Assembly (NCBI RefSeq): GCF_002854065.1
Contig: NZ_CP024153.1
Strand: one strand, 5' to 3'
DNA: 64,000 bases
Source of the DNA: Escherichia coli
GTDB taxonomy: Bacteria; Pseudomonadota; Gammaproteobacteria; Enterobacterales; Enterobacteriaceae
This document shows, piece by piece, positions 31,001 through 49,000 of the stretch. How positions within the stretch are numbered: the first letter of the stretch is position 1; each line of letters begins with the position of its first letter. A program made the position numbers.

Positions 31001-34000
31001 CAGGTGAATGTTTCCCCAGGTTTTTTGCAGGCTCATTATTTTTATTCCGGTAAATGTAGCCGCCGGGCAAGACGCAGCGTGAGAAGCCGCGCCACTTCCT
31101 TTGTCCGGGCTGGCTTAAGGCCATTTGTGTCGATCATCGCCACAAAACTGTAACAATTTCGAATACACTATCGCGGCGATTGTAGGAAGGCGCTTAACTA
31201 AGTGCAAGAATAATTGTTGCACTTTATGTGCGGTCCAGGGGGGGGATAAAAAACCGCGATCCCGGCGTGGATTTAAATGTAACAATAAAACTGGCACTGT
31301 TGCAAATAGTCGGTGGTGATAAACTTATCATCCCCTTTTGCTGATGGAGCTGCACATGAACCCATTCAAAGGCCGGCATTTTCAGCGTGACATCATTCTG
31401 TGGGCCGTACGCTGGTACTGCAAATACGGCATCAGTTACCGTGAGCTGCAGGAGATGCTGGCTGAACGCGGAGTGAATGTCGATCACTCCACGATTTACC
31501 GCTGGGTTCAGCGTTATGCGCCTGAAATGGAAAAACGGCTGCGCTGGTACTGGCGTAACCCTTCCGATCTTTGCCCGTGGCACATGGATGAAACCTACGT
31601 GAAGGTCAATGGCCGCTGGGCGTATCTGTACCGGGCCGTCGACAGCCGGGGCCGCACTGTCGATTTTTATCTCTCCTCCCGTCGTAACAGCAAAGCTGCA
31701 TACCGGTTTCTGGGTAAAATCCTCAACAACGTGAAGAAGTGGCAGATCCCACGATTCATCAACACGGATAAAGCGCCCGCCTATGGTCGCGCGCTTGCTC
31801 TGCTCAAACGCGAAGGCCGGTGCCCGTCTGACGTTGAACACCGACAGATTAAGTACCGGAACAACGTGATTGAATGCGATCATGGCAAACTGAAACGGAT
31901 AATCAACGCCACGCTGGGATTTAAATCCATGAAGACGGCTTACGCCACCATCAAAGGTATTGAGGTGATGCGTGCACTACGCAAAGGCCAGGCCTCAGCA
32001 TTTTATTATGGTGATCCCCTGGGCGAAATGCGCCTGGTAAGCAGAGTTTTTGAAATGTAAGGCCTTTGAATAAGACAAAAGGCTGCCTCATCGCTAACTT
32101 TGCAACAGTGCCCTCCCGATTAACTGGCAGATGACACGCCTCCTGAAAACCCCTAGCATACGCCGCAGTGTTCATGCTAACGGCGAATTCCAGTAAATGT
32201 ATTCTACCGATGTCGTAAAAGAAAATGCTTACCTTTCAGCCACCCGCTCGGGGCTGGAATCGAACGAGATCGCTATCCTTCAGCGCTCTTTGCCTTCCCG
32301 CTTTAATCTTCGGCATTTGAAAAAAAATGAATCATTAAAACTCGTACTGCAAAAGAAAGCGGGAAAATCACGTGTAGTGGCTTATAAATTTACGTCCGGC
32401 TCATTTAATTACACGGCGTATCGTATATCAGACAAAAAGTTCTATAATCTTTCCGATACTTCCGGGAAAGGCAGTCTCGATTATCCGTTACCAGCCACAG
32501 CAAGACTCAGTTCACCTTTCAATCCTGCAAGACTTAACCCGGTATCGGGAAAAGTGAGTCCCCATAATGGCATTGATTATTCCATGCCCATGAACACGAA
32601 AATAGTCAGCGTCATCGACGGAAAAATCACCCGGGCCGAATACAACAGTACCATGGGATATTTTGTTGAAGTAACGGGAAAAGCCGGTGTTAAAACTCGC
32701 TATCTCCACCTCAATAAAATACTCGTTACTAAAGGGGCCAGAGTTACCCGGGGAGGTGCTATTGCGTTATCCGGTAACAGCGGACGTTCATCCGGTCCTC
32801 ATTTACATTATGAGCTGGTCATCAATAACAATCCTGTTAATTCACTGGCGTTCCGGGCATCGGCACCCGCTGATAACAAACTCGAACAGCATGCCTTTGC
32901 GCATGCCAGAGACTACGAACGATACCTGGACTGATAACGGGACCGCGACGCGGCCCCGTTTGCCGGATTAATTTTTTTTATTGTTTTCACTTCCGTGATG
33001 TTGGTGATCCCCATGCCCTCCGTGGCCGTGGAAAAGATGCATTAGCGGGCAGACCAGCAATAACAGATATGGCCAGTAACCTGCCACATGTGACCAGTGT
33101 TCTCGCAGGAGGGCAAATGCCGCGATCGCGGCGACAGCAATAAGCGCATAGGTGGTACTTTTCATACTGGACTCCTTCTGTTCATAACAGACCCTTCACT
33201 CAGTGTTATTTCCCGAGCCTGACACTTTTCAGACGCAACGCATTCACAATGACGCTGACGGAAGAAAGAGCCATGGCCGCCGCCGCAATAACTGGCGACA
33301 GCAGTATTCCATACACAGGATAAAGCAGGCCTGCAGCCACCGGCACACCAAGTGCGTTGTAGATAAATGCAAAAAACAGATTCTGTCGGATATTTTTCAT
33401 GGTGATCTCTGACAGATGACGGGCCCTGTTCAGTATCATCAGGTCGCCTTTGAGAAGGGTGACTCCGGCACTTTCAATTGCCACATCTGTACCCGTTCCC
33501 ATGGCTATTCCCACGTCAGCCGCTGCCAGCGCCGGGGCATCATTCACACCGTCTCCGGCCATCGCAACCACATGGCCAGACGCTTTCAGTCGGGTTATCA
33601 CTGCTTTTTTGCCATCCGGCAGAATCCCGGCTTCAACCTCATCTATTCCCAGTTTCCGTGCGACTGCTTCAGCGGTAAGCTGGTTATCCCCGGTGAGCAT
33701 AACGATGCGGATCCCCGCCTGACGCAACGCTTTAAGTGCATCCGGCGTGGTTGCTTTCACGGGATCCGAGATAGCTATCAGGCCTGCAAGGTACCCATCT
33801 GTGGCCACATAGATAACGGTAGCGCCTTCCATCCGCAACTTATCCGCAACGGCCTTTTGATTATCAATAACGATACTGTTTTCCTGCATAGCCAGTTCAT
33901 TACCAATAACAACCCGTTGACCTTCAACATCGCCTGAAACACCTTTCCCCGACGGAGCATTGAAATCACTGACTGCGGGTATCATGATCCCCCTGTGCTG

Positions 34001-46000: not shown

Positions 46001-49000
46001 ATCGCACACCATGAAGGGGCAATCGCAATGGCTGAGACCGAGCTCAAATACGGAAAAGATCCCGAAATGAGAAAGCTTGCGCAGGACATCATTAAAGCTC
46101 AAAAAGGTGAAATTGAGCAGATGAATAAATGGCTTGACAGTCATAAATAATGAACACTGGAGTGTTGTCTTGCGCACCCTCTTAGGGTACCCCCGGACAC
46201 GAAAATATATAGCACTTAACTAATTAAAAACCCGAATAATTTCGGGTTTTTAATGTAACTTTCTTTTCTGAACGGAAATAATAGTCATACAATTTAATTT
46301 TCTTGTAATTACTCCTACTTTTAATCAGGTACTGGACGATGGATAACGACTCCCGCCTGAGAGGGAAAATCCGTCTGGTTACCTGGCGCTATACTTAACC
46401 GATTGATCGACATGCCATGCTGGTAAAATATTAAAATCCTCCCCCATAAATCTGAACCACATGACAGGATTGATAGTCAGGCAGTATTTCACATTCATTG
46501 CTAAAAAAATAAAAATAAGCATGCATCTTCTCGAAGATTAATTACCTTCCATCTTGTAAAAAAGAATCAAATCCTCTAATAATATCTCGATTCCCGCTTT
46601 TTTTAATACATCTTTCCGCTCGGCATATATTTTCCTCAACATATCTTCAAACCCCTTGCCAAGATGAATTTGTTTATGGCAGTTGCAACATAGTGATATG
46701 ATATTCTCTTCCACATCCAGTGAATTCTCAAAATAGTCTTGCTTTGACATCGGGACAATGTGATGAGGTTCTGTGTAATTTAGAGGAGAGTTTCGCCTTC
46801 TGAACGTTGGATGGTCGCAATTAATTTCACATTTATAATCAGCTTTGTTAAGCGCATTTTTTGAAACAGATTTACTTCTTGGGTATGAGAGTCCATTTTT
46901 GACTTCTATTGCAGCTTTCTTAGGTTTCGCTTTTTCGCTATACTCAAATGTCTGAGTAACGTCAAAGTGATTACTTTCTTCTAGAGCAGTGATCAAATCA
47001 TTATCTGAGTAAAAATCAATGCTTGAGCTTTCGTTCGTACTAAAAAAATCTAGTTCTTTTATTGCCTGAACAAGTTCTTCACGGATAGTCCATAAATTTC
47101 GCTTTGGGTTTCCTTTAATTTCTCTACTTTTCATGACTGTAATGAATTTTGTCCCGGAAGCAATCTTTCCGACTCCTTTAACCTCGAATCGGCCAAGCTG
47201 CTTCTGAACTCTTCCACCCAACCCATTGATTACACCATTAGCACTCATACTGTGCAGGTCGTACTTCTTGCCGATATCGAAACATGTACAGGAATGGTCT
47301 GGCTCAATGAACCATTTTTTTAACGCTGCAATACTTTTGTCATCAAAAACTTTTTTATCCCTTAATAAAATCTTCCATTCTTCAACGCTAATATCTATAT
47401 CACAGACGTATTCACCATCAATTACTTCACATATTTTTTCAATCATGTCCATAACTCTCTTGTAACACAGGCTTTGTAATAATGTAAAATCCGTTACACG
47501 GCGTTGTATGTAATGTCATTGTCTCTTGGACTCCTACAGTCCAAAACAACTTTGTGTTTTGTTGTCCAAAAACTTTTTGTTGCAGTGAGTTCTCACTGAG
47601 ATAAATCTCGCCTTGAGCGTATCACATCAGCAGACTTCCTCTCAACCTTATGGACTTAACCCGGTCATTCTTCACGACAAAGAAAGTACGGCATTTTACA
47701 TGACGAAGAGACGGTCTCAGTTTCACATGACCGGATAACGTTTTTAATGTACTTCATTATTACGGCACGGGTGTTCAAAGAGTATTTTTAAATATTAATC
47801 ATTTTGTTTAACGGGTGGATACCTACAAATTTTAACATTTACTAATCAAGATAGCAGTTATACGTACTGTCCCGGCAAAAATCCTGAGGTTTACAGATTC
47901 CCTCACCGTAACAGACCCGGTCATTCCCCCTGGTCCTCCGGAGAGTCTAGTACGAGTGATAAACGTGAATTCCTGTACCTGAAGTTCAGCCGCTGGCAGA
48001 TAAGTCGTGAACTATAATTACATTCAGTCAGATCCAAACACCTTTTCATCTGCATATATACTTTGTACATACCAGGAGATTACATGCAGGCACCCGGTAT
48101 ACCGGAGAATGAAGAACAGAGGCTGAAGTCCCTGTATATTACCGGCCTTCTTGATACCCGTGACGATGAGCGTTTTGAACGCCTGACGCGGCTGGCCCGT
48201 AAAGCCTTTCAGGTCCCGGTGGCCCTGATAAGCCTGCTGGATCGCGAGCGCCAGTGGCTCCTCGCCTGCCAGGGCGTCGGCGTGCGCGAAACCCCGCGTA
48301 ACATCTCGTTCTGCGGGCATGCCATTCTGCAGGAGGGGCCCTTCATTGTTCACGACGCAGCTGCTGATGAGCGGTTCCGTGACAATCCCCTGGTCACCGG
48401 TGAGCCCCACATCCGGTTCTACGCCGGCCAGCCGGTGAGCCTGCCCGACGGCACGGTGGCCGGCACGCTGTGCCTGATCCACACCGTTCCCCGCGCCTTC
48501 ACGGATGATGACATTGCGTCCCTCCGGGATCTGGCCTGTATCGTGGAAGACGAATTCGAGGCCATCAGCATGGCCATGACGGACAGCCTGACGGGCATTC
48601 CCAACCGGCGCGGGTTTTACCGCGCCGGCGAAAAACTCTTCCGCGCGATGAACCGGCAGGATGCGTCGTTCAGCCTCATCTATTTCGATCTGGACAGGTT
48701 CAAACCGGTGAACGATCTCTGGGGGCACGCAGAGGGAGACGAGGTGCTGAAGGTTTTTGCCGGCTTTTTACATCAGCACCTCGAACCGGGCGAAATAGCA
48801 GGCCGCCTCGGCGGGGATGAGTTTGCCGCCCTGATCCGGCGAAACGGGAACACGAGTTCTTTTCTGCACGCGCTGAGTGCCAGTTTGGATCATTACAATG
48901 ACACCTCGGGCAAGCCCTACAACATCAATTATTCCTTTGGCGAACTGATCAATAACGCAGACCAGTACGCGACGCTGGCGGAAATGATCGGCAAATGTGA

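Follow-up and report, generated by a model that had tools for sequence, protein, structure and literature searches.

A truncated CHASRI island in Escherichia coli, with a complete sil set beside IS26 and oqxAB at the canonical pco position

The stretch of Escherichia coli DNA analysed here (the window; 64,000 nucleotides of contig NZ_CP024153.1) carries a sil locus whose genes run in two divergent groups. On the minus strand lie silP (33206..35683), a P1B-type Cu(I)/Ag(I) ATPase gene with Pfam E1-E2_ATPase, Hydrolase, HMBD, and YHS matches, whose product aligns with positions 1-560 of 560 in the NCBIfam heavy-metal P-type ATPase model; a DUF411 gene (silG/orf105; 35780..36226; Pfam DUF411, E 2e-20) in the position seen in reference islands; and silA (36307..39453), an RND permease gene (NCBIfam CusA/CzcA family, 1648.7 bits, 1-1043/1051). 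These are followed on the same strand by genes for the membrane fusion protein SilB (39464..40756; NCBIfam CusB, 844 bits, 1-413/414), the periplasmic metallochaperone SilF (40870..41223; NCBIfam CusF, 1-115/115, and Pfam CusF_Ec), and the outer-membrane channel SilC (41251..42636; NCBIfam model, 954 bits, 1-461/461). The plus strand encodes the response regulator SilR (42826..43506; NCBIfam copper/silver response regulator equivalog, 491.9 bits, cutoff 420, 1-226/227), the sensor histidine kinase SilS (43499..44974; NCBIfam Cu(+)/Ag(+) sensor kinase, 904 bits, 1-481/482), and the periplasmic silver-binding protein SilE (45225..45656; NCBIfam SilE equivalog, 293 bits, cutoff 200, 1-143/143). 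Alignments with NCBIfam or Pfam profiles span every sil product from one end to the other, which bears out the first-pass annotation in its claim that silE, silRS, and silCFBA-DUF411-silP are complete.

All nine genes of the pMG101 sil determinant are thus shared at full length and in the canonical order, as in annotated reference plasmids. The divergent silC/silR region holds a palindromic box at 42737..42759, read from the sequence as ATAATGACAATGTTGTCATTTTT, which is a putative CusR/SilR-type box, judged by the consensus for such sites. Comparison with close relatives shows a recombinant patch at silC-silR: across roughly 41000 to 43100, which includes silC, about 70 clustered SNPs separate the window from otherwise near-identical plasmids. 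The sil products of the sequence-identical plasmid p2017.10.01CC_1 are about 96-99% identical to the AMRFinder reference alleles.

Three further genes flank the sil set, and the first-pass annotation had placed all of them correctly: a His-rich small membrane protein and an M23 peptidase beyond silP, and a DUF305 protein next to silE. The peptidase gene is pcoG (32197..32934, plus strand; Pfam Peptidase_M23, E 1e-26), which lies in an island-conserved position and whose product is 98.8% identical over 245 of 245 residues to PcoG of a complete island. The DUF2933 gene (32968..33165, minus strand; Pfam DUF2933, E 6e-24) encodes a 65-residue protein with two hydrophobic stretches and 9 histidines, mostly in the C-terminal tail, and is found between pcoG and silP in every complete island examined. 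The last island gene is a CopM-like DUF305 gene (45749..46150, plus strand; Pfam DUF305, E 3e-21) with a likely start codon at 45800. Residues 38-133 of its product match PDB entries 7VW0/7VW1, described as "DUF305 domain-containing protein" (E 6e-58), and the protein is also related to CopM (5FEJ/5FFA). Hundreds of plasmids have this gene after silE, and homology to IncHI2-type islands that are 87-88% identical stops at 46150, the exact end of DUF305. A literature search on the DUF305 structures 7VW0-2 and on DUF305 with silE returned nothing useful beyond a CHASRI figure legend (PMC8568146).

As drawn in Fig. 1 of that paper, the 20 genes of the copper/silver island CHASRI are ordered pcoESRDCBA, pcoF, pcoG, DUF2933, silP, DUF411, silABFC, silRS, silE, and DUF305. 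A complete Klebsiella pneumoniae island has pcoESRDCBA, pcoF pcoG, DUF2933 silP DUF411 silABFC, and silRS silE in the same order, and the window is 95.5% identical to it over 13.7 kb. From pcoG through DUF305, gene content, order, and orientation in the window are identical to those of CHASRI, with the accessory genes pcoG, DUF2933, DUF411, and DUF305 all in conserved positions. The metal-handling genes at both ends of the locus, which the first-pass annotation had called extra, are therefore present but not extra: the published order, the complete Klebsiella island, and the IncHI2-type homology ending at DUF305 make pcoG, DUF2933, and DUF305 standard CHASRI members. The right flank beyond them, encoding an HNH endonuclease, a GGDEF protein, and a tyrosine recombinase, continues unbroken into a backbone common to IncFIA/FIB plasmids. 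Tn7-type transposition genes (tns), which mark the Tn7-like pco/sil transposon of the pMG101/R478 context, are absent from the annotation of the island flanks in sequence-identical plasmids; in p2017.10.01CC_1 the annotation shows no Tns-like genes for about 18 kb to the left and right of the island.

To the left of pcoG, the locus gives way to insertion sequences and antibiotic resistance genes. Two 820-bp copies of IS26 on the plus strand, at 25277..26096 (terminal inverted-repeat 14-mers at 25277 and 26083) and 31293..32112, are 100% identical and in direct orientation. Between them lie oqxR (26136..26615, plus strand), an Rrf2-family regulator gene (Pfam Rrf2, E 1e-18) whose counterpart in this location on plasmids pTAir-3 and pYU07-18 also carries an Rrf2 regulator annotation; oqxB (26685..29837, minus strand), an RND permease gene (NCBIfam OqxB exception model, 2494.7 bits, cutoff 2200, 1-1050/1050); and oqxA (29861..31036, minus strand), a periplasmic adaptor gene (NCBIfam OqxA, 873.9 bits, cutoff 835, 1-391/391). 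A direct IS26 pair around intact oqxR, oqxB, and oqxA is the layout of Tn6010, the oqxAB composite between IS26 copies that was originally reported from pOLA52; here, unlike in Tn6010, the right-hand IS26 is also the truncation point of the metal island. The linkage proposed earlier between the directly oriented IS26 at 25277, oqxAB, and the sil flank holds, as oqxAB sits inside the direct pair and adjoins sil. The replicon to which the window belongs has at least eight IS26 copies or fragments, and the terminal 14-mer of IS26 occurs 15 times in the window against 0.03 expected. However, a search for this terminal repeat found none rightward of 32112 in the window, so that of the proposal that the sil locus is bounded by IS26, the left boundary (32112) stands and the right one does not, and there is no IS26-bounded (pseudo-compound) sil unit in the window. 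No 8-bp target-site duplication was found at the flanks of any IS26 copy or of the oqxAB composite, whose compared flanks are CTCGCGAG and CTCCCGAT. Without such a duplication, IS26 events of the cointegrate, translocatable-unit, or deletion kind account for the structure better than simple insertion does.

The junction between this IS26 and the island falls at 32112/32113, where ...TTTGCAACAGTGCC is followed by CTCCCGATTAAC. The silP-side flank does end at IS26 at 32112, as first annotated, and island sequence restarts at 32113, straight after the IS26 inverted repeat and inside the pcoF-pcoG spacer, leaving 84 bp between the IS26 end and pcoG. When PcoA-E, PcoR, PcoS, and PcoF from the complete island were used as tblastn queries, no homologue of PcoA, PcoB, PcoC, or PcoD was found in the 64-kb window, in agreement with the earlier statement that it lacks pco genes; the only matches were the paralogues SilR, SilS, and SilE, along with PcoG itself (98.8%). 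The first-pass annotation had supposed that the pco position might lie outside the window and had called for comparison with reference sil/pco islands. In that comparison the canonical position proves to be inside the window, left of pcoF-pcoG and below 32113, and is now occupied by IS26 and oqxAB, from which we conclude that pco was deleted from its canonical position. There is no pcoABCDRSE beside pcoFG and sil as in a complete CHASRI, and the locus is a truncated derivative that lacks pcoE, S, R, D, C, B, and A as well as pcoF, with IS26 in their place. We are confident that these 8 of the 20 genes were removed by an IS26-associated deletion that left sil as the surviving half.

The sole survivor of the pco half is pcoG. 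Both pcoF and pcoG have been defined, with co-transcription reported from PpcoF under the control of PcoRS (PMC4824010, 2016). Both pcoF and the PpcoF promoter are gone from the window, and pcoG, stripped of them, is predicted to be a remnant that is probably poorly expressed. A search for a replacement promoter upstream of the orphan gene, including a hybrid formed with the IS26 end, gave one weak sigma-70-like match (32131-32159) that does not rise above shuffled expectation.

Related plasmids provide further insight into how this end of the island arose. The IS26/pcoG junction of the window is identical in at least four complete plasmids (NZ_CP063951, NZ_ON390815, NZ_AP027819, and CP077065). 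When all complete E. coli genomes were searched with window positions 19300-33300, the best record matched just the stretch as far as the IS26 end (92%), so the source plasmid is absent from that collection. Identical 820-bp IS26 copies, several of which are present here, are a classic cause of misassembly, and the junction could in principle be a misjoin through collapsed repeats. This is highly improbable, and we reject it, as the same junction recurs base for base in these independently sequenced plasmids from different hosts and countries, and the whole IS26-oqxAB-IS26-pcoG arrangement is found again in pTAir-3. That plasmid (NZ_CP063951; Enterobacter sp., air sample, China) shares both the junction and the IS26-oqxAB-IS26-pcoG-sil-DUF305 arrangement and is 99.86% identical to window positions 25277-33300 over about 8 kb, but its left flank and silC allele are unlike those of the window. 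It also has a third direct IS26 at the equivalent of window position 48068, so that the whole oqxAB and sil segment is IS26-bounded there. The backbones differ as well, being of the IncFIA/FIB type here and IncFIB/IncY in pTAir-3.

A second type of relative is represented by pTQ17-tet(X4) (NZ_ON390815) and p2017.15.02CC_1 (NZ_AP027819), which are IncFIA/IncFIB/IncX1 hybrids from pig-associated E. coli. These have the same IS26/pcoG junction and sil lineage as the window and share its right backbone (HNH endonuclease, GGDEF protein, integrase, sopAB, and a RepB-type replication gene), but they carry an rclA segment that the window lacks. In this type, and so in two of the four junction-sharing plasmids, a qnrS1 module rather than oqxAB lies left of the IS26. 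Different content to the left of one and the same junction suggests that the junction formed first and that the left side was swapped later.

The cut points of IS26 are nested within one sil lineage of about 99% identity or better, with four positions seen across the plasmids. The cut falls after about codon 92 of pcoD in pYLPM4a, which keeps pcoF, pcoABC, and part of pcoD; 27 bp upstream of pcoA in p2017.10.01CC_1, which keeps pcoF; in the pcoF-pcoG spacer in the window; and inside pcoG in pYU07-18. It could be argued that the island never had pco and descends from a sil-only module with accessory genes of its own, as PMC4824010 and PMC11406079 describe sil/cus modules without pco in some lineages. 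The nested truncation series effectively refutes this reading, which we regard as next to impossible: relatives with sil genes at about 99% identity or better retain pcoF, or pcoF with pcoABC and part of pcoD, up to an IS26 of their own, in the window the sequence breaks off abruptly within the pcoF-pcoG spacer, at the end of IS26; and pcoG itself is part of a transcription unit, pcoFG, that comes from the pco half.

Loss from the canonical position could also mean that pco was relocated, whether elsewhere on the same plasmid, to another replicon, or to the chromosome, and that the full copper phenotype was kept. A replicon this rich in IS26 makes rearrangement plausible, and Salmonella isolates with CHASRI on both chromosome and plasmid have been reported (PMC12582456). 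Relocation is nonetheless unlikely in our judgment, given that pcoA-D are missing from the whole window and from the 50 kb of p2017.10.01CC_1 that were examined, and that complete pTQ17-tet(X4), with the identical junction, has no pco gene but pcoG anywhere in its 90.6 kb. Plasmids with sil only also appear to be frequent, as 291 Escherichia plasmids in PLSDB match sil and 188 match pco.

Under the favored explanation, deletion, an IS26-associated event would have taken pcoE, S, R, D, C, B, A, and pcoF, with its endpoint 84 bp upstream of pcoG. The IS26-oqxR-oqxBA module of Tn6010 would then most likely have joined the pre-existing IS26, either as a translocatable unit or through IS26-IS26 recombination. 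This order of events, deletion first and oqxAB second, is proposed from sequence comparison.

For the genes that remain, roles can be proposed from family knowledge and the papers cited here. SilRS would sense periplasmic Cu(I)/Ag(I) and drive expression of silE and of silCFBA-DUF411-silP from the divergent region with its putative CusR-type box. SilP is expected to transport ions from the cytoplasm to the periplasm, where SilE and the CopM-like DUF305 protein may buffer the metal and SilF would pass ions to the tripartite SilCBA pump for expulsion. The functions presumably lost are those of the PcoA multicopper oxidase, the periplasmic copper handling of PcoBCD and PcoE, and PcoRS. Many sil loci show no phenotype until silS or silR acquires a mutation. 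For the phenotype, the prediction is that the contribution of Pco is lost and that silver resistance, inducible or mutable, is kept together with copper tolerance of the sil type, which is mainly anaerobic. In S. Typhimurium, silCBA is enough for enhanced copper resistance, and deletion of pco alone has no effect while sil is present (PMC6543542). According to PMC11406079, sil occurs either by itself or alongside pco, and one study found that pcoABCD matters for anaerobic copper tolerance in Salmonella (PMC11406079), so that losing pco may come at a cost to the phenotype.

A complete sil set in a truncated CHASRI with adjoining oqxAB is an ordinary arrangement that is already known. The plasmid is correctly scored as sil-positive and pco-negative with a truncated CHASRI island, a distinction that matters for both annotation and phenotype prediction, and what might pass for hypothetical metal genes here are pcoG, DUF2933, and DUF305, all of them already known from the island. 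The locus is an example of IS26 eroding the pco half stepwise while setting sil beside antibiotic resistance modules, with oqxAB as the neighbor in the window and, among relatives, qnrS1 or tet(X4) plasmid backgrounds, and is relevant to copper co-selection in livestock. More tentatively, IS26-oqxAB-IS26-pcoG-sil may act as one mobile co-selection module that moves between backbones by IS26 reactions, with IS26 erosion sparing sil. If so, the segment from DUF2933/silP to DUF305 would always be spared because sil alone gives the selected copper phenotype, and the module would tie together tolerance of two substances added to pig feed, with OqxAB acting on quinoxalines such as olaquindox and Sil on copper.

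The published 20-gene copper/silver island CHASRI is made up of a pco half and a sil half. As described (PMC8568146 Fig. 1; PMC4824010), it runs from pcoE-S-R-D-C-B-A through pcoF, pcoG, a DUF2933 gene, silP, a DUF411 gene, cusA/B/F/C (equivalent to silABFC), cusRS (silRS), and silE to a DUF305 gene. In the window, the segment opens with an M23 peptidase gene on the plus strand (32197-32934), followed on the minus strand by a DUF2933 gene (32968-33165) encoding 65 aa with a His-rich tail. The genes silP, DUF411, silA, silB, silF, and silC then follow rightward in that order, all on the minus strand, and silR, silS, silE, and the DUF305 gene, all on the plus strand, complete the segment to its end at 46150. 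All sil products are covered from end to end by alignments to their NCBIfam or Pfam profiles. The silC-silR spacer contains a palindrome, ATAATGACAATGTTGTCATTTTT, at 42737-42759, which we take to be a match to the CusR/SilR-type box. The first-pass annotation thus described the sequence correctly, with IS26, oqxAB, intact sil genes, and flanking genes all present.

That annotation regarded the genes at the two ends as extra metal-handling functions. The M23 peptidase is pcoG (98.8% identity over its full length), the small His-rich protein is the product of the island's conserved DUF2933 gene, and the DUF305 gene is the conserved terminal gene. Taken with the published order, these identities make the flanking genes standard members of the island. 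The DUF305 gene is next after silE in hundreds of plasmids, and in IncHI2-type islands (87-88% identical) homology to the window stops exactly at its end, at 46150. A Klebsiella island has the published gene order as far as silE, and its homology to the window stops at 45802, ahead of an IS3-family insertion. The DUF305 protein strongly matches a solved structure (PDB 7VW0/7VW1, E 6e-58, residues 38-133) and is related to CopM, a cyanobacterial copper-binding protein.

The canonical island has pcoF and pcoABCDRSE directly beyond pcoG. This position is left of 32197, inside the window and occupied by IS26, and not outside it as had been considered possible. The native island sequence begins in the spacer between pcoF and pcoG at 32113, which leaves 84 bp ahead of the pcoG start codon, and is joined directly to the IS26 terminal inverted repeat. 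A tblastn search of the 64 kb with all Pco proteins gives no match to PcoA, B, C, or D, and the claim that pco genes are missing holds with pcoG as the sole exception. Since the canonical site is in the window and PcoA-D are missing from it, the window alone answers the question of the partner cluster: pco has been deleted from the site it canonically occupies, with 8 of the 20 island genes lost and 12 kept. The complete 90.6-kb plasmid pTQ17-tet(X4) (NZ_ON390815) has the identical junction and carries no pco gene other than pcoG. Among PLSDB Escherichia plasmids there are 291 sil matches versus 188 for the pco cluster, and sil-only plasmids therefore appear common in E. coli. PMC11406079 describes sil as occurring with pco or on its own.

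IS26 is present in the window as at least eight copies or fragments, all at or left of 32112. Between two copies that are complete, identical, and directly oriented (25277-26096 and 31293-32112) lie the Rrf2 regulator gene oqxR, oqxB, and oqxA, with OqxA and OqxB full length against NCBIfam models. This is the familiar IS26-oqxAB-IS26 composite. The proposed bounding of sil by IS26 is borne out on the left, where IS26 ends at 32112, and not on the right, as the window has no IS26 end beyond that point. Likewise, the linkage of oqxAB and sil in one IS26-defined block is only half formed here. It is realised in pTAir-3 (NZ_CP063951), which has the entire IS26-oqxAB-IS26-pcoG-sil arrangement (99.86% identity over 8 kb) and a third direct IS26 at the equivalent of window position 48068, so that the combined segment is fully IS26-bounded.

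The right flank carries genes for an HNH endonuclease, for a GAF-GGDEF protein, and for a tyrosine recombinase, along with IS elements, an array of 37-bp tandem repeats, sopAB, and a RepB-type replication gene. This flank aligns collinearly with IncFIA/FIB(/X1) plasmids of pig-associated E. coli and, up to the GGDEF gene, with Klebsiella plasmids that share about 96% identity. The array (53882-54967) has 29.4 copies of a G+C-rich unit, GGGCGGATTTCCACACGGCACCGGCGCCCGGCAAGGT, with a 91% match, and several reading frames across it show long but spurious ORFs. In the related plasmid p2017.10.01CC_1, the array runs to 24.5 copies and has, directly upstream, an extra ~5.8 kb (rclA, IS66 tnpB) that the window lacks.

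In sil, 177 plasmids reach at least 99% identity. Comparison across the window's sil lineage (plasmids with about 99% or higher identity) places the IS26 boundary at a series of nested positions. In pYLPM4a (IncY, pig, Cuba) it falls after about codon 92 of pcoD, in p2017.10.01CC_1 (IncFIA/FIB, Viet Nam) 27 bp upstream of pcoA, in the window 84 bp upstream of pcoG, and in pYU07-18 (IncC, Salmonella, Mexico) inside pcoG, which is thereby cut further. Such nesting is what repeated adjacent deletions by IS26 into the pco half would be expected to leave. At least four complete plasmids share the window junction exactly. In p2017.15.02CC_1 (NZ_AP027819) and pTQ17-tet(X4), a qnrS1 module lies left of the IS26, in contrast to oqxAB in the window. 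From these comparisons, the IS26|pcoG junction probably formed first, and the oqxAB unit would have joined that IS26 later, via translocatable-unit incorporation or recombination between IS26 copies. No 8-bp target duplications are found in the flanks of either IS26 or of the composite, which fits this order. The IS26-truncated sil structure is real but ordinary and already present in public plasmids, and its first interpretation was only partly right, having missed the flanking-gene identities and the canonical pco position.

In the interval ~41000-43100 (silC to silR), a cluster of about 70 SNPs separates the window and p2017.10.01CC_1 from pTAir-3, pYLPM4a, and pYU07-18, while outside this interval sil is nearly identical among the five. 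The clustering indicates a homologous-recombination patch between island variants, and the window's silC allele and promoter region are divergent as a result.

Positions 1-25300 form an IS26-rich multiresistance region with qnrS (1456-2112), arr (4792-5244), catB (5329-5961), a blaOXA-1 family gene (6099-6974), aac(6')-Ib (7060-7698, called at gene level), dfrA12 (10101-10598), an aadA gene (11006-11797), and aph(3')-II (24289-25083). With oqxAB added, as many as three plasmid-borne quinolone determinants lie on a single stretch. A perfect inverted repeat of 649 nt (7766-8414 / 9448-10096) sits between two cassette arrays of opposite orientation and brackets an IS26 at 8588-9407, and an orphan IS26 terminal 14-mer lies 27 bp past that copy (9434-9447). 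The repeat and the orphan end both resemble traces that earlier rearrangements by IS26 would leave. A 487-aa ORF (14466-15929) scores 236 bits, below the 330 cutoff, with a eukaryote-type glutathione synthase model and is annotated "glutathione synthase" in matching plasmids; its neighbours are an IS110-family element and IS26, and such a gene is unusual as a passenger of a resistance region. A RepE-like replication-initiator ORF (17739-18467; 129 bits, below the 342-bit cutoff) abuts IS26 at 18421 and is probably a truncated replicon remnant from plasmid fusion. The window's junction and sil lineage also occur on pTQ17-tet(X4), a tet(X4)-carrying IncFIA/FIB/X1 hybrid, so in relatives of this plasmid tigecycline resistance and the truncated metal island travel together.

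The retained module would constitute a complete SilRS-controlled system, with SilP as ATPase, SilF as chaperone, SilCBA as efflux pump, and SilE and DUF305 as periplasmic binders. The gene pcoG is present without pcoF, the PpcoF promoter, or PcoRS, the sole match upstream that resembles a promoter does not exceed chance, and the gene is probably a remnant. In S. Typhimurium, silCBA is sufficient for enhanced, mainly anaerobic, copper resistance, and deletion of pco alone has no effect while sil is present (PMC6543542). In another study, deletion of pcoABCD is reported to lead to an anaerobic growth defect in high copper (PMC11406079). Loss of pco would therefore be expected to carry little or only a partial cost to the copper phenotype, and the potential for silver resistance should be unchanged.
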